A stretch of DNA of 64,000 bases from a phage, in assembly GCA_014435945.1 (NCBI GenBank), contig GCA_014435945.1_4088.1. The stretch is one strand, 5' to 3'. Of the stretch, positions 1 to 56,615 are shown piece after piece. Within the stretch, counting starts at the first letter, position 1, and every line of letters starts with the position of its first letter. Below the pieces are notes generated by a model that saw only the letters and a program-made list of their open reading frames with translations, made no database searches and was not told where the DNA came from. Made by a program: the position numbers and the translations under genes.

Positions 1-324
1 ACTATTTGGTGGTCTGATGAGTTTGATGAACCAAAAATCCAACTTTGTGGTGATTTGTCCGTTTTGAGGTTGTATGCCCTTGATTCGGAAATGAATATCA
101 AGATCACATACATACCATACACAAACAAACTTATTGTAAACACCCTAAACCCAGTTACAGTATTGAAAATTTCTGATTTGGACACGATACAGTCAGATGA
201 ATCACTATTCCAACGTTCTTTGATTGATGATATGGGTGGTATTTTATATGAAGATATTGTACAATTGAAGAAGATGTATAGTGAATTGTTAGAAATTAAA
301 AACACAGTAATTGTGGGGAGTTGA
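1..324 (+). CDS. hypothetical protein, 5'-truncated at window edge; FQxS-module family
   Basis: Frame open from base 1 to stop 322-324; C-terminal motif DESLFQRSLIDDMGG. Confidence 0.55.
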   Translation, partial: TIWWSDEFDEPKIQLCGDLSVLRLYALDSEMNIKITYIPYTNKLIVNTLNPVTVLKISDLDTIQSDESLFQRSLIDDMGGILYEDIVQLKKMYSELLEIKNTVIVGS

Positions 325-325
325 T

Positions 326-730
326 ATGGTAAGTTTACTTGATATTGATAATACCAGTCTAGTACTGGCAAAAAAAGGTGTAATTCCCAATTCTACAAAA
401 ATTGATTATGCAGTTATTGAAACAAATATTGGAAATATCTGGTATGACTCCGAAAGGGATATTGTGATTAGCTGCGTAGACAGTGACCGTGCTGAGTGTT
501 GTAGGGTTGGTCATGACGGGCAATTTATTTTCGAATTCCGTTACTGGAAAGATGCTAAATTCCATCATGAGCATGTTTCAATTACAGGTGTGTATTGCAC
601 CGAAGAATCGTTCTTCATGGATAGTACTGTTAATGATTTTGGTTCAGTTACATTTGAGTACTATAAAAAAGTATACAACATATCCAGAGAAGTAATGCGA
701 ATCATCAGAAATGCTGAGGGTCAAGATTAA
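326..730 (+). CDS. hypothetical protein, FQxS-module family
   Basis: ATG 326 after GGGGAG RBS (track start 311 is TTG); C-terminal EESFFMDSTVNDFG. Confidence 0.6.
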   Translation: MVSLLDIDNTSLVLAKKGVIPNSTKIDYAVIETNIGNIWYDSERDIVISCVDSDRAECCRVGHDGQFIFEFRYWKDAKFHHEHVSITGVYCTEESFFMDSTVNDFGSVTFEYYKKVYNISREVMRIIRNAEGQD

Positions 731-731
731 C

Positions 732-1106
732 ATGACTACTATATATGACATTCTAGGTGACTTGAATAAAAATATAGATAATGATTTTGTTATTGTTGGA
801 ACTACACAAAATATAATTCATCTTCCATTGGGTACACCAGATAGGTTAATTTTTAATATATACGGAAAAACACTGACATACCTACACGATGGTATGGTTA
901 TATTGGTACTTGATATTAAAGAAAATACAATACGATATGCATATGACTTCAACGATTATTGGTCAAGAACCCATAGTATTGATATTGAGGAAGATGAACT
1001 ATTTCAATTGTCGTTAATCGAGAAAAATGTATTAGGAGTTACCGAAATTGGCATTGTTAAAAAAGCATTAGAATATGTAAATAGCAAATTAAATGGTGAG
1101 CTATGA
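732..1106 (+). CDS. hypothetical protein, FQxS-module family
   Basis: In-frame ATG just after upstream stop; EDELFQLSLIEKNVLGVTEIG near C-terminus. Confidence 0.6.
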   Translation: MTTIYDILGDLNKNIDNDFVIVGTTQNIIHLPLGTPDRLIFNIYGKTLTYLHDGMVILVLDIKENTIRYAYDFNDYWSRTHSIDIEEDELFQLSLIEKNVLGVTEIGIVKKALEYVNSKLNGEL

Positions 1107-1558
1107 TGAAAATTGATGAAATAAAAAATCATTTTGAAATTGCATTGTCTTGTAAATTTGATGGCTCTTATGTTCCTGATCCAGAAGAGATAATTAGAAT
1201 TTCCACATCGTTTTCGGAAGAGTACAATATTCTTATTGAGAAAACATATGACAGTACTGAACTCGCATTTTACAATAAGAATTCACGAACAACAACATTT
1301 ATATTATTATATAACACAACATCGGATATAATAGAAATTATAACATGTAAAACAAGCAAAGATATACATTATGAGACTATCTCAAATGTGAGTTATTGCT
1401 CAACTGAAGAAGGATACTTTCAGGAATCTCTTGTTAAAAATTTAACAGTTAGTTATTCTGATTTAAGCACTATAATCAATTGTGTTGAAAAGCTAAATGA
1501 TTTCGTTCTATCTATGTTTGATATCACAGAGCAAAACCCGAAGGTAATCAAATGCTAA
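1103..1558 (+). CDS. hypothetical protein, FQxS-module family
   Basis: ATGA stop/start overlap; EEGYFQESLVKNL motif. Confidence 0.6.
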   Translation: MMKIDEIKNHFEIALSCKFDGSYVPDPEEIIRISTSFSEEYNILIEKTYDSTELAFYNKNSRTTTFILLYNTTSDIIEIITCKTSKDIHYETISNVSYCSTEEGYFQESLVKNLTVSYSDLSTIINCVEKLNDFVLSMFDITEQNPKVIKC

Positions 1559-2007
1559 ATCCAGGACAGTTTTTCCATTTACTTAGTATTACACCTATAC
1601 CGGATTTAATCAGTGAAGCGAATCAATATCGTGATATAGGAATTGTATCTATGGAATACGATTCACCTGACTTTAAATGTTACGTAACATATGATTTGGT
1701 AGCCTATGAGTCAGAAACTGAGATAAAAAAACCATCATACATTTTTGTGTTCATATATAATGATTATAGTGGTGATCTACTCAATGATGTTCATATTGAC
1801 ACATTTGAAATATGTGATAATATTATAACAGATGATTCATCATGTACATTTGATTTATCAGAAAACAGTACTGAAGAGGCACTTTTTCAGTTGAGTACTG
1901 TTAGTGACACTGTACTAACTCTTGATGACATTGAGAAATTTAAAGAACAGCTTGACGCAGTACGTGAGATGTTCTATAATCATTATCCAGAAATCGAGTT
2001 CAATTAA
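1552..2007 (+). CDS. hypothetical protein, FQxS-module family
   Basis: Start overlaps upstream stop; EEALFQLSTVSDTVLTLDDIEK motif. Confidence 0.6.
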   Translation: MLNPGQFFHLLSITPIPDLISEANQYRDIGIVSMEYDSPDFKCYVTYDLVAYESETEIKKPSYIFVFIYNDYSGDLLNDVHIDTFEICDNIITDDSSCTFDLSENSTEEALFQLSTVSDTVLTLDDIEKFKEQLDAVREMFYNHYPEIEFN

Positions 2008-2021
2008 CTAAAGGTATCAAA

Positions 2022-2282
2022 ATGACTAAAGTAGTTCGTAAACGCCACATGATGAACATGGATGAATTTCGCACCTTTGACAAATACCGTACTATGTTTC
2101 GTATGCTGTCACAGGGCCGTCCAATCGTCATTGTAACGGAGAATTACATGTCACCTGAGATGATGTTCGGTAATTATGAAAAGGTCTTCATGTTGTACGT
2201 GAAGCGTGAATTGCTAACGATTAAGACCTTAGCTGAAGCTACAGATGAAGATATGGATGGTGATAATACATTTACCATGTGA
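2022..2282 (+). CDS. hypothetical protein
   Basis: 86 aa ORF, AGG-rich RBS region upstream. Confidence 0.5.
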   Translation: MTKVVRKRHMMNMDEFRTFDKYRTMFRMLSQGRPIVIVTENYMSPEMMFGNYEKVFMLYVKRELLTIKTLAEATDEDMDGDNTFTM

Positions 2283-2360
2283 GGAAATATATGGCAGAAA
2301 AACCAAAAGAACCATTGGACCGTGATGATGATTTTTACGACGAACGATATGGGGAATCAG

Positions 2361-2612
2361 ATGAGTGAACATCGTGCAGTACTTAAAAAGATTTTAAATG
2401 AACTTGGTGATGAGTTTAATGTTACTGAAGAAGAATATCAATGTTGGAAGAAGGATTTTGAACTCCTTGCTGAGTATGATAAAGTCTTCAATATGATTGG
2501 TGTCATTAGCCAGTACTTACTTGGTGGTGGTCGAGCCAGTGCTTCAATTCTTGCATCTGCGATCATCTGTACTTCTCGATGGTGCGATGAAAAAAGTCTG
2601 GAAGATTTCTAA
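2361..2612 (+). CDS. hypothetical protein
   Basis: Internal ATG (MSEHRAV...) after GGGGA RBS preferred over track start 2322. Confidence 0.4.
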   Translation: MSEHRAVLKKILNELGDEFNVTEEEYQCWKKDFELLAEYDKVFNMIGVISQYLLGGGRASASILASAIICTSRWCDEKSLEDF

Positions 2613-2664
2613 ATAAGATGCTATAATGTATTATAGTACCTTAACAATATAAAAAGGATTTTAT

Positions 2665-3525: not shown

Positions 3526-3527
3526 AC

Positions 3528-4007: not shown

Positions 4008-4013
4008 TTACAG

Positions 4014-4037
4014 ATCCACGCTATGCGTGGATTTTTC
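4014..4037 (+). terminator. intrinsic terminator hairpin
   Basis: ATCCACGC-TAT-GCGTGGAT followed by TTTTT. Confidence 0.55.
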
Positions 4038-4049
4038 ATAGGTGCATAT

Positions 4050-4565
4050 ATGACAGTTCCTTATGTTAAAATTATTAATAATATCCTTGATTCATGGGAA
4101 GATGTTATTACTGGTAAAAAGAACCCAATGCCAGTACACGCACTAACCGGGAGACTACAATTCAGAACGTCAAACAAAACTGAAACTTTTAATAATCATG
4201 ATGTTCACATTACTATAAAATCACCTGTACGTATTGTAATTAAAAAAAATCAAGATGATGAATTGACATTATCTATTGGTAGTGATAAAATCATTTTAAG
4301 TAATTTATCCGAAGAAGAATTCTTTCAACGAAGTACTATCATCGACATGAAAGATTTCACATATGAATCATTGGTTGAACTCAATGCACGTTTCAACGAT
4401 ATTCAGGAACGATTGCGACCAATCCTCCGCAAAGAAGAAGAAGCATGGAATGAAAGTGTAAGAAAGATGCAAGAAATGTTGAAAGAAAATATTAACAATC
4501 TGGGTAAAGCTACAATGGAATTTGGTAAATCTTTTAAACTGAACTTTTCAAAGGATCGTAAATGA
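4050..4565 (+). CDS. hypothetical protein, FQxS-module family
   Basis: ATG 4050 downstream of terminator hairpin (track start 4023 lies inside it); EEEFFQRSTIIDMKDFTYESL. Confidence 0.55.
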   Translation: MTVPYVKIINNILDSWEDVITGKKNPMPVHALTGRLQFRTSNKTETFNNHDVHITIKSPVRIVIKKNQDDELTLSIGSDKIILSNLSEEEFFQRSTIIDMKDFTYESLVELNARFNDIQERLRPILRKEEEAWNESVRKMQEMLKENINNLGKATMEFGKSFKLNFSKDRK

Positions 4566-5017
4566 AAATTGATAATTTGATTCATGTCTTAGGGACTTTA
4601 CATAAAATATTATTACATCTTAACGAGATGAATAAACTAGGTTATAATGTCCATAATGTATTTGAACCTACATTTAAATATAACTCAATCACTGGAGATG
4701 GTAATTACATAATCGAATATACATATGAAACCGATCCAGACTTCTATCCTCTTACGTTGAGAATTTATCCAACAAATCCGATAGGAATTCACGACATATC
4801 ATCAATTTCACTTGATCCAGATGGTGAAACGAGTATTGAATACAATAATGATTCAAAACCAGAATTTTACATTGATGACATTAAAAAGTTGTTCAATGAT
4901 GAATATGTTTTCCAACAAAGTACTGTGCATGATGTTGGTAGTACTACTGGGCAATTTTGGAATACATGTTATTATCATATGATTGAAATTTGTAAATTAC
5001 TAAAAGGTGTTGAATAA
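4562..5017 (+). CDS. hypothetical protein, FQxS-module family
   Basis: Overlapping start; DEYVFQQSTVHDVG. Confidence 0.55.
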   Translation: MKIDNLIHVLGTLHKILLHLNEMNKLGYNVHNVFEPTFKYNSITGDGNYIIEYTYETDPDFYPLTLRIYPTNPIGIHDISSISLDPDGETSIEYNNDSKPEFYIDDIKKLFNDEYVFQQSTVHDVGSTTGQFWNTCYYHMIEICKLLKGVE

Positions 5018-5400
5018 TGAAATACTGCATTGAAGTACATTACACTACAGGTGATACTGAAAATTGTTATGACGTTCTTAATACAATTGATATTCAATGG
5101 TCTTCTAAAGAGGAAGCAGTTGCTGCTTTACAGTGCCTAAAAGAGCATTGGGTGTTTTATATGAAGCAAGATAATTGCTATACAAAAGAACACGAAACGA
5201 TCATGGAAAATGCTAAACAAAAAGAGTGGTTTGACCCAATATCACCAGAATATTCATTCTTGGTTAAAGTTGGCGATGTAACTGTTCCATTACGAACACC
5301 GTGGAACGGCTACTTTGAAACTCTTCATAATGCACGAGTTGTCGCTGTTGATAACCCTGAACAAATCGATTTCGATTCATTGGACTGGAAAAAACTATGA
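5017..5400 (+). CDS. hypothetical protein
   Basis: 127 aa ORF, TAATG overlap with upstream gene. Confidence 0.5.
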   Translation: MKYCIEVHYTTGDTENCYDVLNTIDIQWSSKEEAVAALQCLKEHWVFYMKQDNCYTKEHETIMENAKQKEWFDPISPEYSFLVKVGDVTVPLRTPWNGYFETLHNARVVAVDNPEQIDFDSLDWKKL

Positions 5401-5840
5401 CAGTACTGCACCGATTGAAGAAGGTTAAGCATCCAGTTGTATATGAGGACTGGAAACGACAGAAGTTGCTGGGTGATTTTTATTACCCAAAATCTAAAGT
5501 TCTTGCGAATTCAAGATGTACATATTGCACACATAATGATAAAGATACAGTATTTGTCGAAATGGGTTTCCATCCATCAAACACAATGTTCACTACTAAC
5601 CAAACGTTTTACAAATTTCATATACAAAAAGATTCATTTACTGTTATGATTATAAAACATTTAGTTGAAGATCTGGCATTCAGTGAAGAACGAGTACCTT
5701 TATCATTAGTGGATATTCCTTATAATAATTTAGAGGAAATGTACTTCCAACAGTTGACAGTACAAGAAAACTTTGGTATGATAGGACTTCAAGAGTTAGA
5801 GATGATTAAGCAAATTCGTGATATCTACTTTAAGGAGTAA
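5397..5840 (+). CDS. hypothetical protein, FQxS-module family
   Basis: ATGA overlap; EEMYFQQLTVQENFGMIGLQELE. Confidence 0.55.
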   Translation: MTVLHRLKKVKHPVVYEDWKRQKLLGDFYYPKSKVLANSRCTYCTHNDKDTVFVEMGFHPSNTMFTTNQTFYKFHIQKDSFTVMIIKHLVEDLAFSEERVPLSLVDIPYNNLEEMYFQQLTVQENFGMIGLQELEMIKQIRDIYFKE

Positions 5841-5842
5841 CT

Positions 5843-5986: not shown

Positions 5987-6002
5987 CAAAAAGGGGACTA
6001 AA

Positions 6003-6173: not shown

Positions 6174-6316
6174 TGGTGTATACTAATATTTTTACTGGTA
6201 TTATGCGTAAGTTTGTTAATGGTACTGGATATGTATCCAATGACAACGGTAGAACATGGGTAAAAAATAATACGTCCGAATCTTTAGTGAAAAGTCTTCC
6301 GTATTATAAAGCTTGA
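6173..6316 (+). CDS. small hypothetical protein (47 aa)
   Basis: TAATG overlap with upstream small ORF; stop inside -35 of next promoter. Confidence 0.25.
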   Translation: MVYTNIFTGIMRKFVNGTGYVSNDNGRTWVKNNTSESLVKSLPYYKA

Positions 6317-6341
6317 CACATGAAAATGGAGTATGTATAAT
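6313..6341 (+). promoter_or_regulatory. sigma70-like promoter
   Basis: TTGACA, 17-bp spacer, TATAAT. Confidence 0.55.
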
Positions 6342-7963: not shown

Positions 7964-8250
7964 AAATTTTAGAAGTCTTACTTGAAAAGGATGCATCCGG
8001 CACTCTTTATGTTGGTAATGAGTTCAGTCCTGATCCAATTGATATGATGCAGCGTATTCAAACACTGACCCAATCAATTTCAGTTAAACAACCTTTCCTA
8101 AAAGAATTGGAAATTCACTGCGATAAAGATATGGAACAACATGATAATGTTATTTCTGATATCAAAAGTCTATTGACAAAGAATGGATATGTGGAGTATA
8201 ATCCTTCTATCGTAATCGTTATCCCTGACTTTATGAAAGGAACATTGTAA
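7960..8250 (+). CDS. hypothetical protein
   Basis: 96 aa ORF, ATGA overlap. Confidence 0.5.
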   Translation: MKILEVLLEKDASGTLYVGNEFSPDPIDMMQRIQTLTQSISVKQPFLKELEIHCDKDMEQHDNVISDIKSLLTKNGYVEYNPSIVIVIPDFMKGTL

Positions 8251-23432: not shown

Positions 23433-24590
23433 TTATGCGTTATAACCAACAATGACTACAGTACAGCCAAATGGTTCAACAACTTTTAATACAACATTAT
23501 CATCTGCATCGAGTTCAACTTCACTTAGTACAACGTGATTGTCTTCAGCATAGACTTGAACTTGTGGGAGGATTTTACCATGTTCACTAGCAGGGATTGA
23601 CAGTGTATACATGGAATCACCATCAACTACCCAATCACTATCGGTATACGTATTGTGATATGGAGTGGTGTGTAAGGTTTTACCAATAATACTCAATGAG
23701 ATTGGAGCGTCATCGGTTTGGTACACAGTGATATTACCGCTAGGATCTACAATGAGGTCTACTCCAATTTGGAATAAATCACCACTGTATGCTTGTAGAG
23801 CAAGATACTCACCACGCTCATGCACAGTAGCTGGCACAGTTGCCATATACATGCCATCGGACGTGTACTCAAACTGCGATAGAAGTACTGAAGTAACGAA
23901 GTCAATATCTTCGCCGCTTTCTAGTATATCAAATTCAATAGTTTTGGTATTATATATGTCAGAAGTGAGGATGATGGTTCCTTTACCGGATTGAGTAATT
24001 GGATCAACTGGAATACTAAAAACATCATCAATTATTTCAGTTGTGAAGTACTCGGTTCCGTCAGGAAGTATAACGGTAATACGCATTCCAGTTGTATCAA
24101 TGACTGAACCTGCGTTGAATAGGCGACCACCTACCAAATCATCACCTACGAACGTTGGGAACATAAGGATGTTGTCTATATCTCTATCTATAATCCCGCA
24201 TTCAGGGGTGTACATATTATATAGTGTTTGTGAACTACCTAGAATTGTTTTGTGCAAAAGAAACTTATAAACAAACCCAGTAGGATCTGATTCAAGTTTA
24301 GCATCTGAGTATCCTCTTACGAAAAAAGAGTTCTTTCTTATTTCACTTAGGATTTGGTCATTAGTTTTGTTGTAGTTTAATTGATATCCTTGTATATCCT
24401 TTGTTGTAATTTGTACTTTACGATAAATTACATTACTTACAGGATCAAGTAAATCATATAATCTATGGCTTCTCTGACGATAGATTCGAACATTTTTGAG
24501 TTTAGTCCCATCGTTGAGAATTGCACCATCGACTACATAACCACATTCACCGAACTTATATCGTCCAGCAGCAGCAATCGATCTTGACAT
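23433..24590 (-). CDS. hypothetical protein (isolated minus-strand gene)
   Basis: 385 aa ORF with GGAGGG RBS; convergent with flanking plus-strand genes. Confidence 0.6.
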   Translation of the reverse strand: MSRSIAAAGRYKFGECGYVVDGAILNDGTKLKNVRIYRQRSHRLYDLLDPVSNVIYRKVQITTKDIQGYQLNYNKTNDQILSEIRKNSFFVRGYSDAKLESDPTGFVYKFLLHKTILGSSQTLYNMYTPECGIIDRDIDNILMFPTFVGDDLVGGRLFNAGSVIDTTGMRITVILPDGTEYFTTEIIDDVFSIPVDPITQSGKGTIILTSDIYNTKTIEFDILESGEDIDFVTSVLLSQFEYTSDGMYMATVPATVHERGEYLALQAYSGDLFQIGVDLIVDPSGNITVYQTDDAPISLSIIGKTLHTTPYHNTYTDSDWVVDGDSMYTLSIPASEHGKILPQVQVYAEDNHVVLSEVELDADDNVVLKVVEPFGCTVVIVGYNA

Positions 24591-24706
24591 TCATCCCTCC
24601 ATTGGTATAATTATTATAATGTATTTATTATGGATAGGTAAAAAAGCACCTTGACTGAGTTGTGTTTTTGACGTATACTTAAATGGAATATCAATAAGGG
24701 GATTTT

Positions 24707-31426: not shown

Positions 31427-32221
31427 ATGAGCACTATAGATGAATTGATTCGCCGGAATTCAAAATACTACGACCCATCAGAAATTGTTGGCAACATTAC
31501 TAAATCTGAGTTCGGCCCAAATACTCGAAAACTCATTCATGTAATGTCACGTGATGGCTTTAAATGTGATTGTTGTGGTGAATCCAATGTGGTATTCACT
31601 TTACATAAACACAGTACTAAAGACCGTTATAAATTCAGACCTTATGTACTTAAAGGGAAACGCCTTGTACGCATGACGTTAGACCATAATGTACTGGACT
31701 GTCTTCAGGGCGGTAATGATAAAGAGAACATGACTGCACTGTGTGAAGATTGTAACGCATTACGCCAGCATAAGTTCGCTGAGTACAGTGAGTTTAAACA
31801 CTGGTATCATAACGCTGATCGTTCTATCGAGCCTGACGTTAACTACTGCTTTATTGAGTATATTAAGAATGCTAAAGATACATACATTCTTAAATCAATG
31901 TCACCTATTACAGTGTTCCCTGAGAATCTATTCAGTACTATGCAGCGTGATTTTAAACGTGGTATCATGAATGCATTCAAACACTTAGACAAAGGTATCA
32001 AGCACTTTGAGGTGCAATGCTTAAATGAAGGAATGAATCGTTTAGTACAAATTTACATGAAATCATTTATAGGTGTTGACACCGCACGTCTACCAGTATA
32101 TAATTACTTCATTGAAAGCGAAGAAGGTGAATCACTTCGTGATTATGGTGAAAGATTTAATAATAAAGTTTTCACTGCAATCGCAAACGAGATTCATTAC
32201 TATAAACCGTATGTAATTTAA
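31427..32221 (+). CDS. HNH endonuclease domain protein
   Basis: CDCCGES...LDHNVLDCLQGGNDKENMTALCEDCNALRQH (zinc-knuckle HNH motif); ATG 31427 after AGGAG. Confidence 0.7.
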   Translation: MSTIDELIRRNSKYYDPSEIVGNITKSEFGPNTRKLIHVMSRDGFKCDCCGESNVVFTLHKHSTKDRYKFRPYVLKGKRLVRMTLDHNVLDCLQGGNDKENMTALCEDCNALRQHKFAEYSEFKHWYHNADRSIEPDVNYCFIEYIKNAKDTYILKSMSPITVFPENLFSTMQRDFKRGIMNAFKHLDKGIKHFEVQCLNEGMNRLVQIYMKSFIGVDTARLPVYNYFIESEEGESLRDYGERFNNKVFTAIANEIHYYKPYVI

Positions 32222-34408: not shown

Positions 34409-34609
34409 ATGCTTACTTTATATCTCGCAGTAGTTCTCACCAATGGTGAGATCACTCGTACTATTGGTGAAGGTGTATATAAAACACCTGACCAGTGCTA
34501 CTCTGCTACTCATTGGCCTCGCGATAGTGGGGATGAAACTCGCACTGAATTCAAATGCATGAAAGTAAAAGGTGATTTTGTTAACCTTAAGGTTATCGAG
34601 GCGAAATAA
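34409..34609 (+). CDS. small secreted protein
   Basis: 66 aa; hydrophobic N-terminus. Confidence 0.45.
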   Translation: MLTLYLAVVLTNGEITRTIGEGVYKTPDQCYSATHWPRDSGDETRTEFKCMKVKGDFVNLKVIEAK

Positions 34610-35124
34610 TGGATATTAATGAGTTGTTGATCTTATTGTTTAATCGTGGAAATGATGTAAGACGTTCTGAATATCAAGACAAAATTCACATTGAAACTGA
34701 TAAATGTTATGGTAAAACAACTCATGAGATTTTGAAGCCAAATGGCAAACGATATGCCGATGTATGTTTTCATGAACGAAGTGATGGTAGTGAAATAATC
34801 AGTACTGAAATTGTGTTTTATGATAGATCCTCGGCAGGTTCGTATGAAATAGAACTTATATATTGTCCTGGTTCAGAAACACACAATAAACGTCAGATAT
34901 TATATGATGTTTATTCACCACCAGGTGTAGCTGAATATTTTGTTATTGATTACAGTACTGAAGAAAGTGTGTTTCAACAGAGCTTGATTCATAACTTCCA
35001 GTTGAATGACCCAAATGTACCAAAGTTGTTCAAACTACTCGATACTATCGATGTTGATTTTGAATTTGTTATGTGCATTAGAACTTCCTTGATCGATGAA
35101 TTTATGGAACTACTTAATATATGA
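34609..35124 (+). CDS. hypothetical protein, FQxS-module family
   Basis: EESVFQQSLIHNFQLND. Confidence 0.55.
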   Translation: MDINELLILLFNRGNDVRRSEYQDKIHIETDKCYGKTTHEILKPNGKRYADVCFHERSDGSEIISTEIVFYDRSSAGSYEIELIYCPGSETHNKRQILYDVYSPPGVAEYFVIDYSTEESVFQQSLIHNFQLNDPNVPKLFKLLDTIDVDFEFVMCIRTSLIDEFMELLNI

Positions 35125-40520: not shown

Positions 40521-41093
40521 ATGAATAGAAAAGGTAAGTTCAAAGTATCAAAGAAGAACAAAAGTTCTAGATTTAGACCTATAACTTTAACTTTTAAGGC
40601 TAAAGAAGAATTAACTGCACTTAGTAAAAAGATAATTTCATCTAAGATTAAAGTATCATACGTAAATTCGTTAAAATTTCAGAAGGTTAAACCACAAGAC
40701 AAACTCATTTCACTTATATTTGAACGTAATGATTTTGAGATATTAGTAGATGATTATAGAGCCTATAATGCTGGATTCATCCATGTCACTTGTAATACCG
40801 AACTAACTGAGTTGGAACATTTGACATGTATCATAAGTGTAGATAACGGTGTGGTGAAGTACAAATTTTTACATTTTACCAATATCAATAATGGAATGGG
40901 TGTACAATCCAGAACTATAGTACCTACATGTGATGTGACTAATTTAGCAAAGCTCAATGAAGAAGAATATTTTCAAGAAAGCATTGTAACTGAGCATTTA
41001 GATGCTATAATAGCAACTTACAAAGAATGCATATGGGTTTTGAATGCGATAAAGCCCAAATTGTGTTTAATGAATGTCGTTCGTGATTTATAA
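40521..41093 (+). CDS. hypothetical protein, FQxS-module family
   Basis: EEEYFQESIVTEHLD. Confidence 0.55.
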   Translation: MNRKGKFKVSKKNKSSRFRPITLTFKAKEELTALSKKIISSKIKVSYVNSLKFQKVKPQDKLISLIFERNDFEILVDDYRAYNAGFIHVTCNTELTELEHLTCIISVDNGVVKYKFLHFTNINNGMGVQSRTIVPTCDVTNLAKLNEEEYFQESIVTEHLDAIIATYKECIWVLNAIKPKLCLMNVVRDL

Positions 41094-41661: not shown

Positions 41662-42045
41662 ATGGTTGATAAATGGAATAAGAAAGATCCATCGCATGAT
41701 GTGGATATTTCTGGAATTGATAATGCACATAAGCATAAGTATCTTGATTCACTAGGTCTACTAAAGCCTGACCAAAGTCTTGCACATGATCGTCCTTCAC
41801 GTGAAAAAGCTTTCAGTCTAGAATCACTAGGCCATGAATTGAATCGTGTATTTGAAGATCATCCAATTTATGTACGTGATATCATTGAGAAACTTAAAGT
41901 GACTCCTAAAGAGCACTTCAAGGCAACAGTACACGCAGCATTCCGTGCACTACATGAAGCACTAAAGAAAACTCATAACCTTCGCAAGATTCATGATGAC
42001 ATCGTGAACTCTATTGAAGGCGAAAAACATAAGTTTAAAAAATAA
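41662..42045 (+). CDS. hypothetical basic protein; shares SLGLL motif with 42893 gene
   Basis: KYLDSLGLLKPDQ motif; AAGGAG RBS. Confidence 0.55.
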   Translation: MVDKWNKKDPSHDVDISGIDNAHKHKYLDSLGLLKPDQSLAHDRPSREKAFSLESLGHELNRVFEDHPIYVRDIIEKLKVTPKEHFKATVHAAFRALHEALKKTHNLRKIHDDIVNSIEGEKHKFKK

Positions 42046-42892: not shown

Positions 42893-44404
42893 ATGAAATC
42901 TATGGAGAGAAATCAAATGCCAGGTCAATTTACTGATAAAAATGGCGGGAACATGGCAGGTCACTCTGATAAATGGAGTGAACGCAATCGTCGTCAAAAT
43001 AGCTACCAAGCAGGACAGGGGTCACGTGGATCACGTAATCAAGGGACAGGTTTAGCTGGTAAGGCAAACGCAGAAGCAGGTGAAGTTAAGAGTACTGAGA
43101 ACATGACTGAGCTAGAAAAGCTACGTTATGTTAACTCATTAGGTCTTCTTAACGCAACACAGAAACAACGCCTTGCTGATATGGAACGTGCTGAGAAAGA
43201 ACAAGCAGTTCCTAAAGAAGAACCAAAACCAGAAGCTCCTAAAGCAGCTAACCCTGTTAAAGAGTTATCTGATAACTTAGGTAAGATCTTTGCTAACAAA
43301 CCACAGTTGATTCAGGGTATTGTCAAAGCACTACAGGCAGTTCCTAAAGAAGAACTCAAAGGTAAAGCACAAGCTGTACTTGATGCAATGAAAGGTAATA
43401 AGAGCACTGAACCCACTGAAGTATTCAGTACTATCATGCGTGCACTTGAAGGTACACACAAAGAAGATTCGAAAGAACCTGAACAGGGTGAAGCAAGTCT
43501 TGATGGTATTCTTAAAACTTTTGATAGTATTGGTAAAGCAGACCGTGCTAATGCCCAGCAAATCAAGAATGTACTGGCTAAACTTGAAAACCGTTTAGAA
43601 GGTAAAGACGATAAGGTTAAGCTCGTATCAGATGCAGTTAACAGTGCACTTAAATCTTATGTACAAGGTGAGAAAAGTCGCTTCGTAACAGCTATGGATG
43701 CTGCATTCAACACTATGAAAAAGTATGAAGCAGAACATGGTGAGAAGGTAACACCAGATGGTTATCTAAAGCGTGCAGATGAAGAAGGTGCAGTTGAACA
43801 GAAAGATGTAGAACCTGAACAAGAAGATCTACCTGATACCGTTGATATGGATGGATATATTCATCGTCCTGAGATGGAAGAGTTTGGGTCAGATAAAGAA
43901 GGTTTTGAACATGCAATGGCAGTATATAAAGCATTAGTTAAAAATCCAGATTATGCTAACCGTTTTGTTGACGAGTTTGATAGTGCATGGAATAACTACA
44001 AAGACAAAGGTTATGACTTCCCTGCTGAAGCTGCATTCTTTGAACTTGGTAAACTATTAGCTAAACATGGAATTGACGTTGGTTCATCTGATTCCGAAGG
44101 TATGGAAGAAGAACATCTTGAAATGACCGATAAATCAATTCATGAACTTCAAAAGCTAATGATGTGGATATCCGAGATTGGTAAAAAAGCAGGTGCTGAT
44201 AGTAAAAGTATCAACAAAAACATTAGTTGGATTAAAGATAATGTTGGTAACAATGCTCGTAAACTACAAAAGGCGTGGGCTGATTTAGTAAATGGTGCAG
44301 ATGATGTTGACATTGAATCACCAGAAGCATATGAGTATGCACTAACTACACTTGATAACTCATTCAAAGAGTACGACCGTGGTGTTGGAAAAGATAAAAA
44401 ATAA
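42893..44404 (+). CDS. large acidic/lysine-rich protein with internal repeats
   Basis: 503 aa; AVPKEE repeated; SLGLL motif; highly charged and low-complexity. Confidence 0.6.
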   Translation: MKSMERNQMPGQFTDKNGGNMAGHSDKWSERNRRQNSYQAGQGSRGSRNQGTGLAGKANAEAGEVKSTENMTELEKLRYVNSLGLLNATQKQRLADMERAEKEQAVPKEEPKPEAPKAANPVKELSDNLGKIFANKPQLIQGIVKALQAVPKEELKGKAQAVLDAMKGNKSTEPTEVFSTIMRALEGTHKEDSKEPEQGEASLDGILKTFDSIGKADRANAQQIKNVLAKLENRLEGKDDKVKLVSDAVNSALKSYVQGEKSRFVTAMDAAFNTMKKYEAEHGEKVTPDGYLKRADEEGAVEQKDVEPEQEDLPDTVDMDGYIHRPEMEEFGSDKEGFEHAMAVYKALVKNPDYANRFVDEFDSAWNNYKDKGYDFPAEAAFFELGKLLAKHGIDVGSSDSEGMEEEHLEMTDKSIHELQKLMMWISEIGKKAGADSKSINKNISWIKDNVGNNARKLQKAWADLVNGADDVDIESPEAYEYALTTLDNSFKEYDRGVGKDKK

Positions 44405-45831: not shown

Positions 45832-46170
45832 ATGGAACATCATTTTGAATTAATTAATAAGGTATCATTTTATATAGTATCGTTAGTTTGGGTGTATTAC
45901 ATGTTTGGTTACATTATTGCATTCTTCCGATACACGACCTTGTATCAACGCATATACTACGATGCACCAATTTCATTTTTGATGTTCTGTGCATGTACGT
46001 GGGGGATAATTGAAGCACTGGTATGTGGATATAGTACGGACGAATTAAATCTCGTATCGGTGTTGACATTACTAACAATTGCTACTATGATAGCTACAGT
46101 TCCAATATTTTTGCTCTTTAAACTGCTTCATCGCATCGATGAGTGGCGTAATAAAATCCCTGAAAAGTAA
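45832..46170 (+). CDS. small membrane protein, array A member 1
   Basis: About 3 TM helices with basic C-terminal tail; GGGGG RBS. Confidence 0.55.
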   Translation: MEHHFELINKVSFYIVSLVWVYYMFGYIIAFFRYTTLYQRIYYDAPISFLMFCACTWGIIEALVCGYSTDELNLVSVLTLLTIATMIATVPIFLLFKLLHRIDEWRNKIPEK

Positions 46171-46179
46171 GGATTGATA

Positions 46180-46521
46180 ATGATTTTTTACACTAATGCG
46201 TTTGCTTATGCCGTTGCATCAATCTACATTGTGTACTTCTTATTTGGTGGAGTACTGTACTTCTTTAAGTACAAAACATTGTTTAACCGAATGTATCCAA
46301 ATCATCCAATTGTAGTAGTACTTTTGATTATTTCTGTTGCTCACATCATTGTAGAAACAATAATGGGTATTAGTGCAGTACATTACAGTCTAGGTACTAT
46401 TGTGATTATTACTATGATCATCGCATACATTTTAGTAATGGGTTCTGGTTTATTTGGGAATGTAGCAATGAAATTGTATAATCGAATTAAAACCTTACGT
46501 GATAATCTACCGGAGCGTTGA
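46180..46521 (+). CDS. small membrane protein, array A member 2
   Basis: ATG 46180 after AAGGA (track used TTG 46174); same architecture. Confidence 0.55.
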   Translation: MIFYTNAFAYAVASIYIVYFLFGGVLYFFKYKTLFNRMYPNHPIVVVLLIISVAHIIVETIMGISAVHYSLGTIVIITMIIAYILVMGSGLFGNVAMKLYNRIKTLRDNLPER

Positions 46522-46522
46522 G

Positions 46523-46867
46523 ATGTATAATTTAAATTTAATATCATATATCATAACAACACTGTTTACTTTCTATGCCTTTGTTGGTATACTCCTACTG
46601 TACTTTAAATTTTATAAACTCTTTGACCGTTTTTATCCGTCATTAGAACATGAATTCTTATTGGTGATGTACATCTGTCTAACGTTTATGTCTACATTTT
46701 TCACTGCATCTGATGGTATCATTGGTATTAAAGCTGAAGAACCAAATGGGAGTACGCTTGTTGCCTTTATTCTGGTAGGATTTTTCAGTACTTATATTAC
46801 CTTTATTTCAGGATGTACCGTGATTGATTATCTTGTGAAATTACGAGATAAAATGCCAAATCGATAG
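46523..46867 (+). CDS. small membrane protein, array A member 3
   Basis: ATG 46523 after GGAG (track used GTG 46499); same architecture. Confidence 0.55.
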   Translation: MYNLNLISYIITTLFTFYAFVGILLLYFKFYKLFDRFYPSLEHEFLLVMYICLTFMSTFFTASDGIIGIKAEEPNGSTLVAFILVGFFSTYITFISGCTVIDYLVKLRDKMPNR

Positions 46868-47515: not shown

Positions 47516-47543
47516 TTGACAAACTCATTCAGTACTGTATAAT
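47516..47543 (+). promoter_or_regulatory. promoter, CAGTACTG-spacer class
   Basis: TTGACA-AACTCATTCAGTACTG-TATAAT. Confidence 0.6.
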
Positions 47544-51378: not shown

Positions 51379-51388
51379 CAATACAAAA

Positions 51389-51421: not shown

Positions 51422-51449
51422 TATTTCATCAACTGATGAGGATAACGAA

Positions 51450-52220: not shown

Positions 52221-52228
52221 TTACATGT

Positions 52229-52258
52229 ATTGACAGTACTACCATAGTGTAGTACTAT
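52229..52258 (+). promoter_or_regulatory. candidate promoter with AGTACT-rich spacer
   Basis: TTGACA then about 17 bp then TACTAT. Confidence 0.4.
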
Positions 52259-52287
52259 AACTTAATATTCACCACCGGAGATACGAT

Positions 52288-52626
52288 ATGCTTGAGTTTT
52301 TTAATTCAGATACAATGCTTAGTATTACTTTGATTTATCTGTTTGGTTTTTTCTTTTATCATGCACTAGTTGTAGTACTATGGTATTTTAAAAAGAAAAT
52401 CGTTTTCAAACTGTATCCTGATGGAAACATTTCACTACTTCTTTTCACTATTATCCAAGGTATGTTTGCAATTGTTGGTCTTATCGCACACTTAATTTAT
52501 TGTGCTAATCCACAGTTGAACTCAATATCACAATATATTGTATTCCTTGGATTACTAATTTGGGTGCTGATATACTTGTTTAATCTCATCATCAATGGTA
52601 GAGCAAAAATTCGTGGGGACTTCTAA
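52288..52626 (+). CDS. small membrane protein, array B member 1
   Basis: 112 aa; about 3 TM helices; basic C-terminal tail. Confidence 0.55.
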   Translation: MLEFFNSDTMLSITLIYLFGFFFYHALVVVLWYFKKKIVFKLYPDGNISLLLFTIIQGMFAIVGLIAHLIYCANPQLNSISQYIVFLGLLIWVLIYLFNLIINGRAKIRGDF

Positions 52627-52973
52627 TGTTTGAATCTTATCTTGAGTTTTTAAAGAGTAGTTCTGTTGCACATTCAATTGCAGGGATTATTCTAACAGGT
52701 TATGTAACATTTTGGGTAGTTATGTTTCTAGGATGGTATTTTAAACGACAATTCTATAAGCGTAATGGTGAAGATTTTATGAATTCTTTCATTAATCAAT
52801 CGTTGTTTGCATCAACATTGATAGCATCTATTGTAGCAACACTCACTGGAAAGGTACTGCCAGCATTCTCCGCAGTTTACGGTACATTGGGTATGATATG
52901 TGTAGTTTTTTACTTGATCATTAAACTTTGTTGTGTTATGATTGACCTTCGAAACAAGATACCGGAGGAATGA
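52626..52973 (+). CDS. small membrane protein, array B member 2
   Basis: TAATG overlap; tail ends DLRNKIPEE, like array A. Confidence 0.55.
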   Translation: MFESYLEFLKSSSVAHSIAGIILTGYVTFWVVMFLGWYFKRQFYKRNGEDFMNSFINQSLFASTLIASIVATLTGKVLPAFSAVYGTLGMICVVFYLIIKLCCVMIDLRNKIPEE

Positions 52974-53308
52974 TGGAATATTTTTTACACTTACTGCCGT
53001 GGTATATGAAAGTTAGTACTATGTACTATATTCTTAGTGCTGGATTCTACTTTCTGATGTGGTTCTTCAAACGACCAATTTCAGTATTCATCTCTGATAA
53101 CATGCTGCAATTAAAATTACACGCATGGTTTGGTATGGCGATGATTATGCCAATTATTCACTACTCAATGATTAGTAGAGGGTTCCGTTCCAATGGTGAA
53201 CCAATTGTATTAGTATTCTATTGGGGTTCAACTATTGCATATGTAAGTTTGTTGTTGTTCCCAGTCGTTCATAAATTACGTGCTAAAGTTCCTGATGCGA
53301 GGTACTAA
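52970..53308 (+). CDS. small membrane protein, array B member 3
   Basis: ATGA overlap; same architecture. Confidence 0.55.
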   Translation: MMEYFLHLLPWYMKVSTMYYILSAGFYFLMWFFKRPISVFISDNMLQLKLHAWFGMAMIMPIIHYSMISRGFRSNGEPIVLVFYWGSTIAYVSLLLFPVVHKLRAKVPDARY

Positions 53309-53622
53309 TGGATATCGTAACATTGATTTACACGCTTTATTCATTCTATTTTATTATGTGTTGGGTTGGATTTTTATTTGTATTGAAGATGTTTGATTAT
53401 GTTGAAAAACAGATAAAAGAATTTTGTATTCCTTTTATTGGGTCAACCATAATTAGTATTACTTGTTTGTATTATTTGGTATGTGATCCACCTGTTAATA
53501 CAGCAATGATTGACTTCATGTTATTACCAACAACTGTTATTTTTTTATGTAGTCTGATGCCACCGATTAGTCGTGGGCTAACCGAATTTAGACGCAATCA
53601 AAAGCGTAAACGAGGGATGTGA
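53308..53622 (+). CDS. small membrane protein, array B member 4
   Basis: TAATG overlap; same architecture. Confidence 0.55.
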   Translation: MDIVTLIYTLYSFYFIMCWVGFLFVLKMFDYVEKQIKEFCIPFIGSTIISITCLYYLVCDPPVNTAMIDFMLLPTTVIFLCSLMPPISRGLTEFRRNQKRKRGM

Positions 53623-53990
53623 TGGAAATTACACTTATTATATTAACTGCTATGTTGTTTATTAGTACAATTGTTATTATTGGCAAGTTCTTCTGTGTAT
53701 CCTTCTTGGAAACCGTATACGATGAAATTGCTGATGATTATGAATTACATGCGGGATTTTTTACTACGTATTGGATTAGTTTATTACTACTTATCACTGT
53801 ATGGATTTTACATATATTCAAATGGGGTATGGTAGATGGTGATCCAGTACTGGCAATTATCTGTGTAGTGTTTGGTCTACTCGGTGGTGCTGTCCATAAT
53901 CTGATGGTAATTTGGCAAACCGTACAATATGTATTAGTTCCACATTTTCAGAGAATGCACCAAAGCATCAAATACCGCAAACGAGGATAA
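53619..53990 (+). CDS. small membrane protein, array B member 5
   Basis: ATGA overlap; same architecture. Confidence 0.55.
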   Translation: MMEITLIILTAMLFISTIVIIGKFFCVSFLETVYDEIADDYELHAGFFTTYWISLLLLITVWILHIFKWGMVDGDPVLAIICVVFGLLGGAVHNLMVIWQTVQYVLVPHFQRMHQSIKYRKRG

Positions 53991-53991
53991 C

Positions 53992-54354
53992 ATGAATAAT
54001 ATTGAATTATCTTTTATTGGTCAATTAATGGTAATGGCGTATACATTTATCTTCTCACTGAATGCATTCGTGTGCATTGGGAAGTACTTCCATAAGCGAC
54101 CATTATCAAATATATATGATGTAATACAAAGGAGATATAGCCCAGCATATACTGTGTTGAGTACAGCATTCAATTTTGGTTTTATTCTAATGCTGGTTGC
54201 ATTATTAACATCGAGTTTAAATTTTATAACATTTGGTATTATGGTATGTTCACTAACACTGAGTGTGGTTATTCTCTGTGCATCCGTTGAGTTGATGGCG
54301 TGGATGTATTATAAGATTTCCGAAATCCATGACCGTTTAGGTAAGAGGAACTAA
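53992..54354 (+). CDS. small membrane protein, array B member 6
   Basis: Same architecture. Confidence 0.55.
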   Translation: MNNIELSFIGQLMVMAYTFIFSLNAFVCIGKYFHKRPLSNIYDVIQRRYSPAYTVLSTAFNFGFILMLVALLTSSLNFITFGIMVCSLTLSVVILCASVELMAWMYYKISEIHDRLGKRN

Positions 54355-54355
54355 A

Positions 54356-54727
54356 ATGAGTTATCGTGAAATATTTTCGATCATTACTATTATTGTTTTT
54401 AGTTTAGGTTCTTTGGTGTGGTTATTGTATTACTTCTGTGTAACCCCAGTATATAATATGCTAAATTCAGTACGCTCTGATGTTGGTATTGTTTCTTTTA
54501 TTATCTTCATGGCATATTATATGCTAAGTATCACAGGTTTGGTTTTGGTTGTTATCTTTGACCTTGGACCGAATCAAGATGGTATGGAGGTGTGGGAATT
54601 GATAACGATGTTTGCATGTATGATACCTGCATTTGGTGTATGTGCTGGTGTATTTTATGGGTTATGTAAAGGTGTGAACTACTTAAAAAATATCCACAAT
54701 ACTATTCGTAAAAAACGTATGTTATAA
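54356..54727 (+). CDS. small membrane protein, array B member 7
   Basis: Same architecture; tail IRKKRML. Confidence 0.55.
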   Translation: MSYREIFSIITIIVFSLGSLVWLLYYFCVTPVYNMLNSVRSDVGIVSFIIFMAYYMLSITGLVLVVIFDLGPNQDGMEVWELITMFACMIPAFGVCAGVFYGLCKGVNYLKNIHNTIRKKRML

Positions 54728-54728
54728 T

Positions 54729-54764
54729 AAAAATCCAGTACTATTATAGTACTGGATTAATTTT
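54729..54764. terminator. bidirectional terminator at strand switch
   Basis: Perfect 10-bp stem ATCCAGTACT/AGTACTGGAT with A-run and T-run flanks, between convergent genes. Confidence 0.7.
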
Positions 54765-55887
54765 AATTATCTAAGCCACCAATTACACTGAACTGTGTGG
54801 TAACGTCTGAACTATTATCTATGTAAGTTCTTCTACCAACATAATATAGTTGTCCTTTTGCTTGTATAAAAGTTACTGTCCCTGTATTGAATGTTATAAT
54901 ATCATTGTATGTAATGTCAGGTGGTAGTGCTGCTGATAACGCAGTAACTTTACTTAATGCAGCACTAGTACTACCATTTATACCAGCAGCAATACTACCA
55001 GTACCATAGAACTTATTATCTTTACCAATGAATACGTTGGCTGATGCTTGTGTAGCTGATGTTATTGCCTTACCAATTTGGAATGCGGTTCCTATGGTGT
55101 ATGGTGTGCTCCTGGCTGCGTCTATGCTTTGTGTATATCCATCCCCTAGCTGACCATTAACTTTGTCACCACATGAGTATAGAGTACCATTGAGGCTGTA
55201 TATGATCCCACGGTTAGAGAAGCTAACAGCTTCTGCATTAGTCCATACTGGTGCGGTGTATGAGTTTACACGACTAGCGGTAGTTCCTAGACCTAGTATA
55301 CCATATGTGTTATCACCACATCCAAACCATTGCCCAGAACTGTTTTGATAGAACACTGAACGTTCTGTTGATTCCATGCGTACAGCATCCACAGCACCAC
55401 TTTTAACGAACGAAGTGGATGAGGATGTAGTACCAGTACCCAATGCACCATAAGTGTTTGTACCAATCGCATAGATTGATCCTAGTGGTGTCATAACACG
55501 TATGCAGTTATATCCCAATTGAACTTTACATTCAAATAGGTTGTCCCATATTTCAGGAACAGCAGAAAATAAATTTGTAATTTCGAACCATGATGTTGTC
55601 GAACCAGTTAATCCTATACTGCTTTTGTTTCCTAAAATGAAAACAGTTTTGTCCTTCTTAATTATCCATGATGATAGGAAACCTATCTCACAGCTATGAA
55701 CATTTGATTCTATTTGGGTAATATAATACTTAACTGTGTTATCACCCATGAATGCCGCAGCACCGGATGCAAAAAGGTTTCCAGTTTGTTTATTTAAAAT
55801 GTAGTTATTGTTTCCATATACTCTAACATCATAAGAACTTTCTTGTTTTTCGTTCCCATAATCAAATAACAATACGAAAGGTAACAT
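54763..55887 (-). CDS. RCC1-like repeat (beta-propeller) protein, MLPF family paralog A
   Basis: N-terminus MLPFVLLFDYGN; Gly-rich repeats YGALGTGTT, YGILGLGTT, NGQLGDGYT. Confidence 0.65.
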   Translation of the reverse strand: MLPFVLLFDYGNEKQESSYDVRVYGNNNYILNKQTGNLFASGAAAFMGDNTVKYYITQIESNVHSCEIGFLSSWIIKKDKTVFILGNKSSIGLTGSTTSWFEITNLFSAVPEIWDNLFECKVQLGYNCIRVMTPLGSIYAIGTNTYGALGTGTTSSSTSFVKSGAVDAVRMESTERSVFYQNSSGQWFGCGDNTYGILGLGTTASRVNSYTAPVWTNAEAVSFSNRGIIYSLNGTLYSCGDKVNGQLGDGYTQSIDAARSTPYTIGTAFQIGKAITSATQASANVFIGKDNKFYGTGSIAAGINGSTSAALSKVTALSAALPPDITYNDIITFNTGTVTFIQAKGQLYYVGRRTYIDNSSDVTTQFSVIGGLDN

Positions 55888-55964
55888 GATAAAATCTCCT
55901 TGTGTTATACTTTATTTAATCATTTTATAATGTACAATTTTACAGCGATTTAATTGAGGTACTC

Positions 55965-56615
55965 ATGAATAAAAGAAGTAAGTTCTATCAAGAATATTTC
56001 ACTAAACAGAAACGATTCACAAAAAAATACTTTACATCATCCCACCGACCAGTTGCAAGTTACAAACGTCCTAATACTAACTATCTTACTGGTGGCAAGT
56101 TTAGTGCAAAGTTCGAATTACTTATGCGTGAAAAGAATATCAAGATGCATTACGCAGAGACGAGAAAAAACTCATCAATTATTTGCTCTGATTTTCTTGA
56201 GTACGGTTGCTTAACTTATAAATTCAACGATGTATATTTGTATATTGATGTTGATTGTAACAGTACTCGTATGTTTGAGATTTCAATTCACCCAAATCAC
56301 AACCGTTATATAAACATTAACTTGGTTGATAAAGTACTGATTGGTATATCTAGTACTGATGGTGGTGGATTTGAATTTATTGCTTCAAAATATGATGAAG
56401 ATTTCGTACTTTACCCAGTACTTGATGATGTGAAAGATATTCTCAATTCATTAAAAGGAAGTCAATACAAATTATCTGAAGAACAGCTATTCCAGTACTC
56501 ACTTATTCATGATGATATCGAGATATACTTAGAGTGTGCGAGAATCTTGGAGTATCTTTATAATGAACTAACAACAACTGGTAAAGTGACTGCATTCACA
56601 TTATATAATATGTAA
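55965..56615 (+). CDS. hypothetical protein, FQxS-module family, embedded in minus-strand array
   Basis: 216 aa; C-terminal EEQLFQYSLIHDDIEIYLE. Confidence 0.55.
   Translation: MNKRSKFYQEYFTKQKRFTKKYFTSSHRPVASYKRPNTNYLTGGKFSAKFELLMREKNIKMHYAETRKNSSIICSDFLEYGCLTYKFNDVYLYIDVDCNSTRMFEISIHPNHNRYININLVDKVLIGISSTDGGGFEFIASKYDEDFVLYPVLDDVKDILNSLKGSQYKLSEEQLFQYSLIHDDIEIYLECARILEYLYNELTTTGKVTAFTLYNM

Follow-up and report, generated by a model that had tools for sequence, protein, structure and literature searches.

A large family of small phage proteins with a conserved C-terminal FQxS block, expanded within RaK2-like jumbo phages

The FQxS genes of the window

A 64,000-nucleotide (nt) stretch of phage DNA (contig GCA_014435945.1_4088.1 of assembly GCA_014435945.1, hereafter the window) was analysed for a set of small plus-strand genes whose products share a C-terminal block centred on the residues F-Q-x-S, and which we refer to as the FQxS family. 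The window is Asteriusvirus DNA (121Q/PBECO4/RaK2-like jumbo coliphage). Its identity is approximately 97% with Escherichia virus TH47 and 86-99% with further Asteriusvirus jumbo phages, whose genomes measure about 350 kb (PBECO4, 121Q, slurp01 and Turkey3 among them), and it corresponds to 111.6-180 kb of TH47 on the opposite strand. The DNA is AT-rich (33-36% GC) and crowded with small plus-strand open reading frames (ORFs).

The identification of the family was based on motif counts and on profiles. A strict motif, [DE][DE]x[FYWLIMV]FQ, was counted in the window frames of both strands and occurs 14 times in plus-strand frames and never in minus-strand frames, while residue shuffles within the same ORFs gave 0.18 +/- 0.42 occurrences (maximum 2). 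In 13 of the 14 cases a stop codon lies 33-54 residues past the motif, so the conserved position of the block, as proposed in a preliminary description of this DNA, is borne out; the exception is 4023-4565, in which the motif stands 84 residues from the stop and a C-terminal extension is present. An iterated hidden Markov model (HMM) of the C-terminal module matched 18 window ORFs, and a wider profile trained on 190 sequences from an exhaustive profile search (the family HMM) returned 19 firm and 3 marginal members, with all matches of either model on the plus strand. The firm member added by the family HMM over the module HMM is 11228-11734. The large plus-strand family of the preliminary description was thereby recovered, including all 11 of its examples. 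At the conserved positions, Ser is written AGY in 10 members and TCN in 6, Phe TTT in 11 and TTC in 7, and Gln CAA in 9 and CAG in 6; since different synonymous codons are used, both Ser codon families included, selection acts on the protein rather than on the DNA. The FQxS family is real and coding, and its proteins are small (~105-215 amino acids, aa), soluble and mostly acidic. They constitute one lineage-specific, massively expanded family in RaK2-like jumbo phages.

All members described in the following are encoded on the plus strand, and E values refer to the family HMM unless stated otherwise. Starting at the window edge, 1-324 is cut at its 5' end (136 aa in relatives, with P0008 as the identical full-length protein; motif SDESLFQRSLIDD, E 3.7e-25) and is followed by 311-730, an FM motif variant (TEESFFMDSTVND, E 5.7e-19, also matched by the module HMM), 711-1106 (EEDELFQLSLIEK, E 5.3e-8, module HMM E 9.6e-14), 1103-1558 (TEEGYFQESLVKN, E 1.8e-19, and E 2e-4 with an HMM of the N-terminal part only, see below) and 1552-2007 (TEEALFQLSTVSD, E 4.7e-18). 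Further downstream are 4023-4565, which has a basic/coiled C-terminal extension of ~50 aa (SEEEFFQRSTIID, E 2.8e-18, also placed by alignment), 4562-5017 (NDEYVFQQSTVHD, E 2.2e-15) and 5397-5840 (LEEMYFQQLTVQE, E 1.3e-15). The tandem run previously delimited as 4050-5840 does hold these members, but 5017-5400, which sits between two of them, gives no family signal (E 1.7) and does not belong to it. Two starts were likewise revised, to 711 instead of 732 and to 4023 instead of 4050, with the ORFs themselves retained as members.

Two members with basic C-terminal tails follow: 11228-11734 (TEEERFMLSTINP, E 2.2e-13), which is absent from the preliminary description, and 12535-13038 (DEDVHFQESLVCD, E 6.7e-13), for which tblastn found no orthologue in the PBECO4 150-250 kb regions searched. 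The member 15288-15644 (TEEEYFQMSTVQE, E 7.1e-19) has a sigma-70-like promoter at 15229-15256, directly 5' of the gene according to the promoter scans. Next come 18055-18480 (TEEKFFQYCLVND, E 1.4e-22), used for structure model 1, and 18473-18832 (TEESLFQYSMIND, E 5.8e-20), and then 19502-19978, a YMQ variant (TEDMYMQLNFVYD, E 1.1e-18), 19987-20391 (DEDMFFQLSTVYD, E 1.3e-15) and 20339-20809, an FM variant (TEEEHFMDSTVKE, E 6.7e-28, N-part-only HMM E 3e-7). The orthologues P0002, P0005 and P0006 of 19502-19978 are 138 aa long, and the true start of this gene is probably an internal ATG giving the same length. Three members are singletons: 34609-35124 (TEESVFQQSLIHN, E 7.3e-17), 40521-41093 (NEEEYFQESIVTE), which was used for structure model 2 and has a basic N-terminal tail of 32 aa predicted to be disordered, and 55965-56615 (SEEQLFQYSLIHD, E 1e-11), a 216 aa protein with a basic N-terminal extension whose gene adjoins an RCC1-like array (see below).

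Three further ORFs have a weaker standing. A marginal, divergent member lies at 11731-12135, with a remnant of the motif (VEEEFQYNLLYPD, E 6.5e-5, N-part-only HMM E 1.6e-4). An EEDEFQK subtype had been assigned to two ORFs, and this local motif is indeed common to both; their membership is marginal for 16032-16403 (EEDEFQKRT, E 1.6e-3 over profile positions 21-134) and doubtful for 10235-10627 (EEDEFQKNT, E 0.12), which has only the local motif in common with the former.

The N-terminal extensions of 40521-41093 and 55965-56615 are similar to each other and Lys/Arg-rich (MNRKGKFKVSKKNKSSRF... and MNKRSKFYQEYFTKQKRF...), that of 40521-41093 being disordered in the model, and basic C-terminal tails occur on three further members (4023-4565, 11228-11734 and 12535-13038). 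Such basic, probably disordered tails suggest that some of the members contact nucleic acids or membranes.

Predicted fold and the conserved block

Structures were predicted with AlphaFold2 for two members with dissimilar sequences, using alignments in which paralogues were mixed. Model 1 (18055-18480; predicted local distance difference test, pLDDT, 81; predicted template modelling score, pTM, 0.77) has a helix at residues 5-15, seven strands within 19-94 and helices at 95-98, 101-110 and 118-128. Model 2 (40521-41093; pLDDT 73) has the disordered basic tail, a short helix, seven strands within 44-133 and C-terminal helices at 139-144, 147-156, 160-176 and 183-189. The order of secondary-structure elements is the same in both. 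A family protein is accordingly modelled as a single alpha/beta domain of ~140 aa, in which an N-terminal helix precedes a predicted antiparallel meander sheet of seven strands, and two or three helices make up the C-terminal end.

Other comparisons extend beyond the C-terminal block. Among the matches listed from the exhaustive profile search, 78% begin to align 50 or more profile positions upstream of the module, and only 4% are confined to the module itself. Some paralogue pairs align across ~100 aa (18473-18832 with 18055-18480 over 102 aa, 19987-20391 with 19502-19978 over 112 aa). Independent BFVD models are available for proteins from a Yersinia phage and from PBECO4, RaK2, GAP32 and CBB; they can be aligned with model 1 along their full length, the better ones with template modelling (TM) scores of 0.5-0.67. 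As models, upstream alignment extents, paralogue alignments and BFVD matches agree, we favour one fast-diverging domain whose C-terminal helices are the most constrained part. The preliminary description had instead pictured a short module attached to otherwise dissimilar effector domains, a picture that the one predicted architecture of two dissimilar members and the upstream extent of most listed matches do not support.

Its observation that the N-terminal regions are dissimilar stands at the sequence level and fails at the level of the predicted fold. An HMM of the N-terminal part only, trained on distant relatives, recovered 3 window members without false positives among 142 genes, and the corresponding HMM of the C-terminal part recovered 18. 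Comparison of N-terminus-only profiles of five orthologue groups with hhalign gave nothing significant, in profiles that are shallow and that we do not take as proof of unrelated N-termini.

The signature of the block reads [ST]-E-E-x-[FYL]-F-Q-x-S-[TL]-[VI]-x-D ... [LI]-T-x-E-[DE]. In both models EExFFQxS[TL][VI] forms the helix that follows the last strand (helix 101-110 of model 1, helix 147-156 of model 2), and LTxED begins the next helix. In 18055-18480 the conserved block comprises residues 99-128 (18349-18438, plus strand) and, according to the prediction and to the conservation in distant relatives, consists of an N-capped helix with EExFFQxS, a short turn and a second N-capped helix (LTFEDI...). 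The motif-helix blocks are the parts predicted with the highest confidence (pLDDT 90-95; residues 91-130 of model 1), and the T/S-E-E and T-x-E-D positions look like helix N-caps. In 122 distant relatives, whose mean column identity is 7%, F105 never varies, and E101, E102 and S108 each reach a conservation of 90% or more. Because the conservation of polar residues is so high, a functional surface is possible beside a structural role.

Distribution beyond the window

In the whole TH47 genome (MT446416), 51 ORFs match the family HMM at E < 0.01, 47 at E < 1e-3 and 38 at E < 1e-5, all on one strand. A second array, outside the window, holds ~26 more divergent members at 53.5-81.5 kb, and 3-4 additional members are found at 335.6-337 kb and 351 kb. 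Weak HMM matches in the second array still show the motif (e.g., SEEELFQESTV, TEEMYFQWSCIHD and SEEYYFQNSTLYD). With ~50 members in TH47, the family amounts to roughly 9% of the genes, taking as a basis the 551 features annotated in PBECO4. To our knowledge, this is the largest lineage-specific gene expansion in a tailed phage.

The family was also recovered from other genera. In Klebsiella phage RaK2, a representative of another genus (Alcyoneusvirus), 12 members were found within the 50 kb of synteny. Two metagenomic jumbo-phage contigs from IMG/VR, 366 kb and 360 kb long and with no DNA similarity to the window, have 6 and 9 members within 20 kb, respectively, and the second of these is only distantly related to phages fENko-Kae01, Munch and 7t3. 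Pattern matches in IMG/VR comprised 124 stretches, 3 of which passed confirmation by tblastn against a single first sequence; since so few were confirmed, and against one sequence, the IMG/VR distribution is under-sampled. The exhaustive profile search against 1.84 billion cluster representatives yielded 167 clusters (50% identity) at E <= 1e-3, nearly all of 115-190 aa, and the strict motif is present in 116 of the 143 matches examined. Most of the 20 distant relatives whose origin was checked are encoded on metagenome contigs, the longest of which reach ~350 kb. A word-indexed homologue search returned no more than 25 matches, all of Asteriusvirus type, when queried with an alignment, and nothing but orthologues of at least 62% identity when queried with a single protein; the real breadth of the family became visible with the exhaustive profile search. 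One metagenomic protein, P0233, is chimeric: its C-terminal 50 aa, including the FQxS block, match RaK2 ORF184 (L004 12304-12795), and its N-terminus is unrelated. It is either a natural recombinant or an assembly artefact.

The preliminary description knew of no named family with this signature, and the database searches agree. No family-level match for the family proteins was obtained in Pfam-A, NCBIfam, PADLOC or the PDB sequence profiles, and no recurrent weak Pfam match was seen across the 122 distant relatives. One match among the latter, to PF21220 (RecQ-1-like helix-turn-helix, 46.6 bits), was discarded, as it falls in the foreign N-terminus of P0233, outside the family domain. In PHROGs, the window members are spread over more than ten groups (phrog_17453, 24941, 24321, 23322, 13866 and at least ten others), which are joined only by weak cross-matches through the C-terminal block and none of which has an annotated function or a unifying description. 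A literature search on the motif strings, on paralogue families of Asteriusvirus and RaK2 and on tandem anti-defence paralogues of jumbo phages found no description of the family. The RaK2 paper reports that ~10% of the gene products are paralogues, with the families not named (PMC3622015). A survey of 224 jumbo phages calls a ~35-copy zinc-ribbon expansion in Bacillus phage G unprecedented and, under the terms tried on its main text, makes no mention of the FQxS family (PMC7824862).

The zinc ribbons of phage G and the RCC1-like array of the present phage are likewise cases of many tandem paralogues of one small domain per genome. The FQxS family differs from them in fold and signature, in its higher copy number (~50 in TH47) and in being common to several genera instead of being confined to one phage. 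The FQxS family itself is undescribed, but large phages are already known for expansions of this kind, in which a small accessory protein multiplies within one lineage.

Divergence and selection

The window members were compared with their PBECO4 orthologues, whose gene order is kept. Identity to the orthologues is 73% for family proteins and 87% for the other, neighbouring plus-strand genes (p 8.5e-4), and the median ratio of nonsynonymous to synonymous substitution rates (dN/dS) is 0.27 for the family and 0.15 for the neighbours (p 6e-4), with similar dS. For 17 of the 18 orthologue pairs dN/dS lies between 0.1 and 0.4. Within the members, the N-terminal part is 67% and the module 80% identical to PBECO4 (Wilcoxon p 4e-5), which, together with the coverage of the part-specific HMMs, upholds the earlier claim that the C-terminal block is better conserved than the remainder of the protein. 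Given that dN/dS is below 1 and that the identity of the N-terminal part is lower than that of the module, the members are functional genes under purifying selection with a fast-changing sheet part.

Expression, charge and location

Promoters were scanned for as TTGACA, a spacer of 16-18 nt and TATAAT, with at most one mismatch in the twelve positions. The window contains 33 such near-consensus sigma-70 promoters on the plus strand and none on the minus strand, with 3.3 +/- 1.9 expected from a Markov simulation. Examples within 1-52000, all on the plus strand, are found at 6313-6341, 8173-8202, 13516-13544, 17486-17513, 24584-24611, 32076-32104 and 47516-47543. In TH47, sigma-70 matches number 109 on the strand that carries the family and 8 on the opposite strand, with a concentration at 20-200 kb that spans both arrays. 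Consensus host promoters at such a density are unusual. The tandem arrays are thus located in a region dense in sigma-70 promoters and are therefore probably transcribed by the host RNA polymerase early in infection, as the label "early" in the preliminary description had implied. The equivalent region of phage CBB was proposed to be an early, host-takeover gene region (PMC5259590), and in relatives the same region is annotated with tRNA genes, a phage sigma factor and a protein kinase described as an inhibitor of host transcription.

No transmembrane segment was found in 19 members (19-residue Kyte-Doolittle maximum below 1.6, compared with 2.54 for a membrane-protein control from the window), and the annotations of the 12 RaK2 members do not include a virion protein. 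The isoelectric point (pI) is below 5 in 13 of 18 members (the set before 11228-11734 was added) and in 26% of the other plus-strand genes, with a window median pI of 4.6. Across the 122 distant relatives the median pI is 4.9. Basic members also occur, several of them having a pI of 7.6-9.2.

Possible functions

We tentatively favour the view that the family is an early-expressed, diversifying set of binders or inhibitors of host proteins, a reading for which the case falls a little short of even. The C-terminal helices would provide an invariant scaffold and possibly also a surface for oligomerisation or docking, and the fast-diverging face of the sheet would be the recognition surface. Each paralogue would then bind, and probably inhibit or sequester, a different host protein, be it a defence effector, a toxin or a host-takeover target, and the array would operate like the bacterial strings of paralogous immunity proteins. 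In a bolder version, which we regard as speculative and rather unlikely, a hypervariable repertoire of immunity-protein-like binders on an invariant helical scaffold, in what is the largest tailed-phage expansion known to us, would act as a counter-defence or toxin-neutralising library that sets the host range of these broad jumbo phages. The FQxS helices could in addition be a common handle for oligomerisation or docking.

One of the closest parallels is TipC, which confers immunity to the Streptococcus type VII secretion toxin TelC (PDB 6dhx) and which, as predicted for the FQxS family, has seven antiparallel strands and about three helices. TipC2 consists of three helices and a seven-stranded sheet, and its variable concave sheet binds the toxin while the conserved residues lie on the helical convex side (PMC6193138). 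The immunity genes of type VII secretion systems are reported to form strings of non-identical paralogues as well (PMC9484751). The FQxS family likewise varies in its sheet part and keeps its helices, so the division of labour may be alike; this is an analogy, and homology is not established because sequence identity is 11% and there is no profile match. There are also differences. TipC is membrane-anchored and acts outside the cell, whereas the FQxS members carry no transmembrane segment, and the TipC gene adjoins an LXG toxin gene in Firmicutes, whereas the FQxS genes lie in a phage early region. No LXG/TelC toxin gene was found next to members; the neighbours in annotated relatives are small hypotheticals, tRNAs, a methyltransferase and a sigma factor.

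Several points weigh against a set of diversifying binders built on one domain. Sequence similarity between the N-terminal parts is barely detectable, and the shared topology could have been partly imposed on the models by input alignments that mix paralogues. The higher dN/dS may stem from relaxed constraint and not from an arms race. The polar E, E, Q and S stay nearly invariant among 122 very divergent sequences and could therefore belong to a functional site instead of a scaffold. Finally, the designation "early" rests on promoter consensus and on synteny with another phage.

The last point but one leads to a different assignment of roles, in which the C-terminal helices would bind one common partner (a host hub or a phage machine, e.g., a protease) and the variable sheet would recruit clients. 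Such a docking or adaptor function, which refines the proposal made in the preliminary description, seems unlikely to us, even if the C-terminal block is the sole strongly conserved part across at least 167 clusters, is better conserved between orthologues than the remainder of the protein, and shows a conservation of E101, E102, S108 and the Gln that exceeds the needs of a hydrophobic core; the PBECO4 annotation also includes an ATP-dependent protease. On the other hand, the block is predicted as well-packed helices at the highest model confidence, and helix N-caps would account for its T/S-E-E and T-x-E-D positions. No partner is known, and it would have to be explained why ~50 proteins should compete for a single site. 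The acidity of the family, and a predicted order of elements as in p32 (N-terminal helix, seven antiparallel strands, C-terminal helices), would suit acidic oligomeric decoys, i.e., doughnut-shaped homo- or heterotrimers resembling p32/gC1qBP/MAM33 that form through the conserved helices and, by mimicking polyanions or acting as sponges, would engage basic proteins of the host, e.g., nucleases or proteins of the nucleoid. We consider this improbable. The p32 scores are weak and p32 is not among the top matches of model 2, 10 window members and the 122 distant relatives have no match to Pfam MAM33 (PF02330) at E up to 1, and the basic members do not fit. Moreover, p32 (also HABP1) is a mitochondrial trimer of eukaryotes.

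Two readings treat the motif as a linear peptide, and both were rejected. TEV (tobacco etch virus) and 3C proteases recognise ExxYxQ|(G/S) and LEVLFQ|GP, and family sequences such as EEEYFQMS and EEALFQLS resemble these sites, so that E-x-x-[YF]-F-Q might be cleaved like ENLYFQ|S to release a C-terminal peptide. This has hardly any chance of being right, since the resemblance is one of sequence only: the conserved Ser is at +2 after Gln and not directly after it, the motif lies inside a confident helix (pLDDT > 90) and not in an exposed linker, the next 30-45 residues are conserved helices of the same fold, and variants with M for Q are common. No 3C-like protease turned up either, in a genome that was not searched for one as a whole. 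A sliding-clamp-binding peptide, targeting the host or the phage clamp, is suggested by a loose likeness of Q-x-S-[LT]-[IV] (e.g., FQLSLI, FQYSLI) to the bacterial consensus QL[SD]LF; such motifs are usually located in disordered termini, whereas here the motif is internal and part of a well-packed helix, the final aromatic of the consensus is missing, and T is as frequent as L at the fourth position, which makes this reading very improbable too. There is, lastly, the view that the genes are decaying duplicates, or by-products of a repeated DNA element or of gene conversion, without function at the protein level. The tandem arrangement, the high divergence or marginal status of some members and the lack of an orthologue of 12535-13038 in the PBECO4 regions searched would agree with it. 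Yet no reading frame is disrupted, the genes are arranged as in PBECO4, the family is also present in RaK2 and other genera, no DNA-level repeat explains the motif, and for the family as a whole the view is refuted by the dN/dS values and by the codon variation at conserved residues, leaving it a negligible probability.

Whichever function the FQxS proteins have, ~9% of the genes of Asteriusvirus-type phages, and many in RaK2-like relatives, fold into one definable family, which is clearly recognisable by its signature, has a predicted fold and combines, in its evolution, a conserved scaffold with a fast-evolving sheet, in jumbo-phage genomes whose genes are mostly of unknown function. The family HMM can be used for annotation in place of the scattered PHROG assignments, and the members are a tractable set of small soluble proteins for host-partner and anti-defence screens. 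Should they indeed neutralise defence proteins or toxins of the host, host range would depend to a large degree on these arrays, in phages that are now proposed for therapy against E. coli, Klebsiella and Salmonella.

Other genes in the window

Seven tRNA genes are interspersed with family members at 14065-18038, including three tandem tRNA-Thr(TGT) genes and a tRNA-Ser gene of 92 nt, for which the unusual anticodon ACT was called. Five paralogues of tiny size, 55-60 aa (12307-12489, 13035-13205, 14733-14897, 14894-15058 and 15055-15219) form their own BLAST cluster and are interleaved with FQxS members. Another small family consists of three adjacent paralogues of 112-122 aa (45832-46170, 46174-46521 and 46499-46867). 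The plus-strand genes 41662-42045 (127 aa) and 42893-44404 (503 aa) encode mutually similar proteins; their PBECO4 counterparts by position are apparently the virion structural proteins gp325 and gp323, though the genes lie within the promoter-dense "early" region.

Towards the end of the window, seven consecutive plus-strand ORFs of 104-123 aa (52288-54727) all have the appearance of small membrane proteins that cross the membrane several times and end in a basic C-terminal tail. They are only weakly similar to one another (E 2e-4 for the best pair) and may be a further tandem family. In one relative, "immunity to superinfection" genes are annotated somewhere in the stretch that matches 40-64 kb of the window. 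The RCC1-like array consists of seven tandem minus-strand paralogues of 372-401 aa (54763-63777), to which relatives give the annotation "regulator of chromosome condensation"; in PBECO4, ten such genes follow one another.

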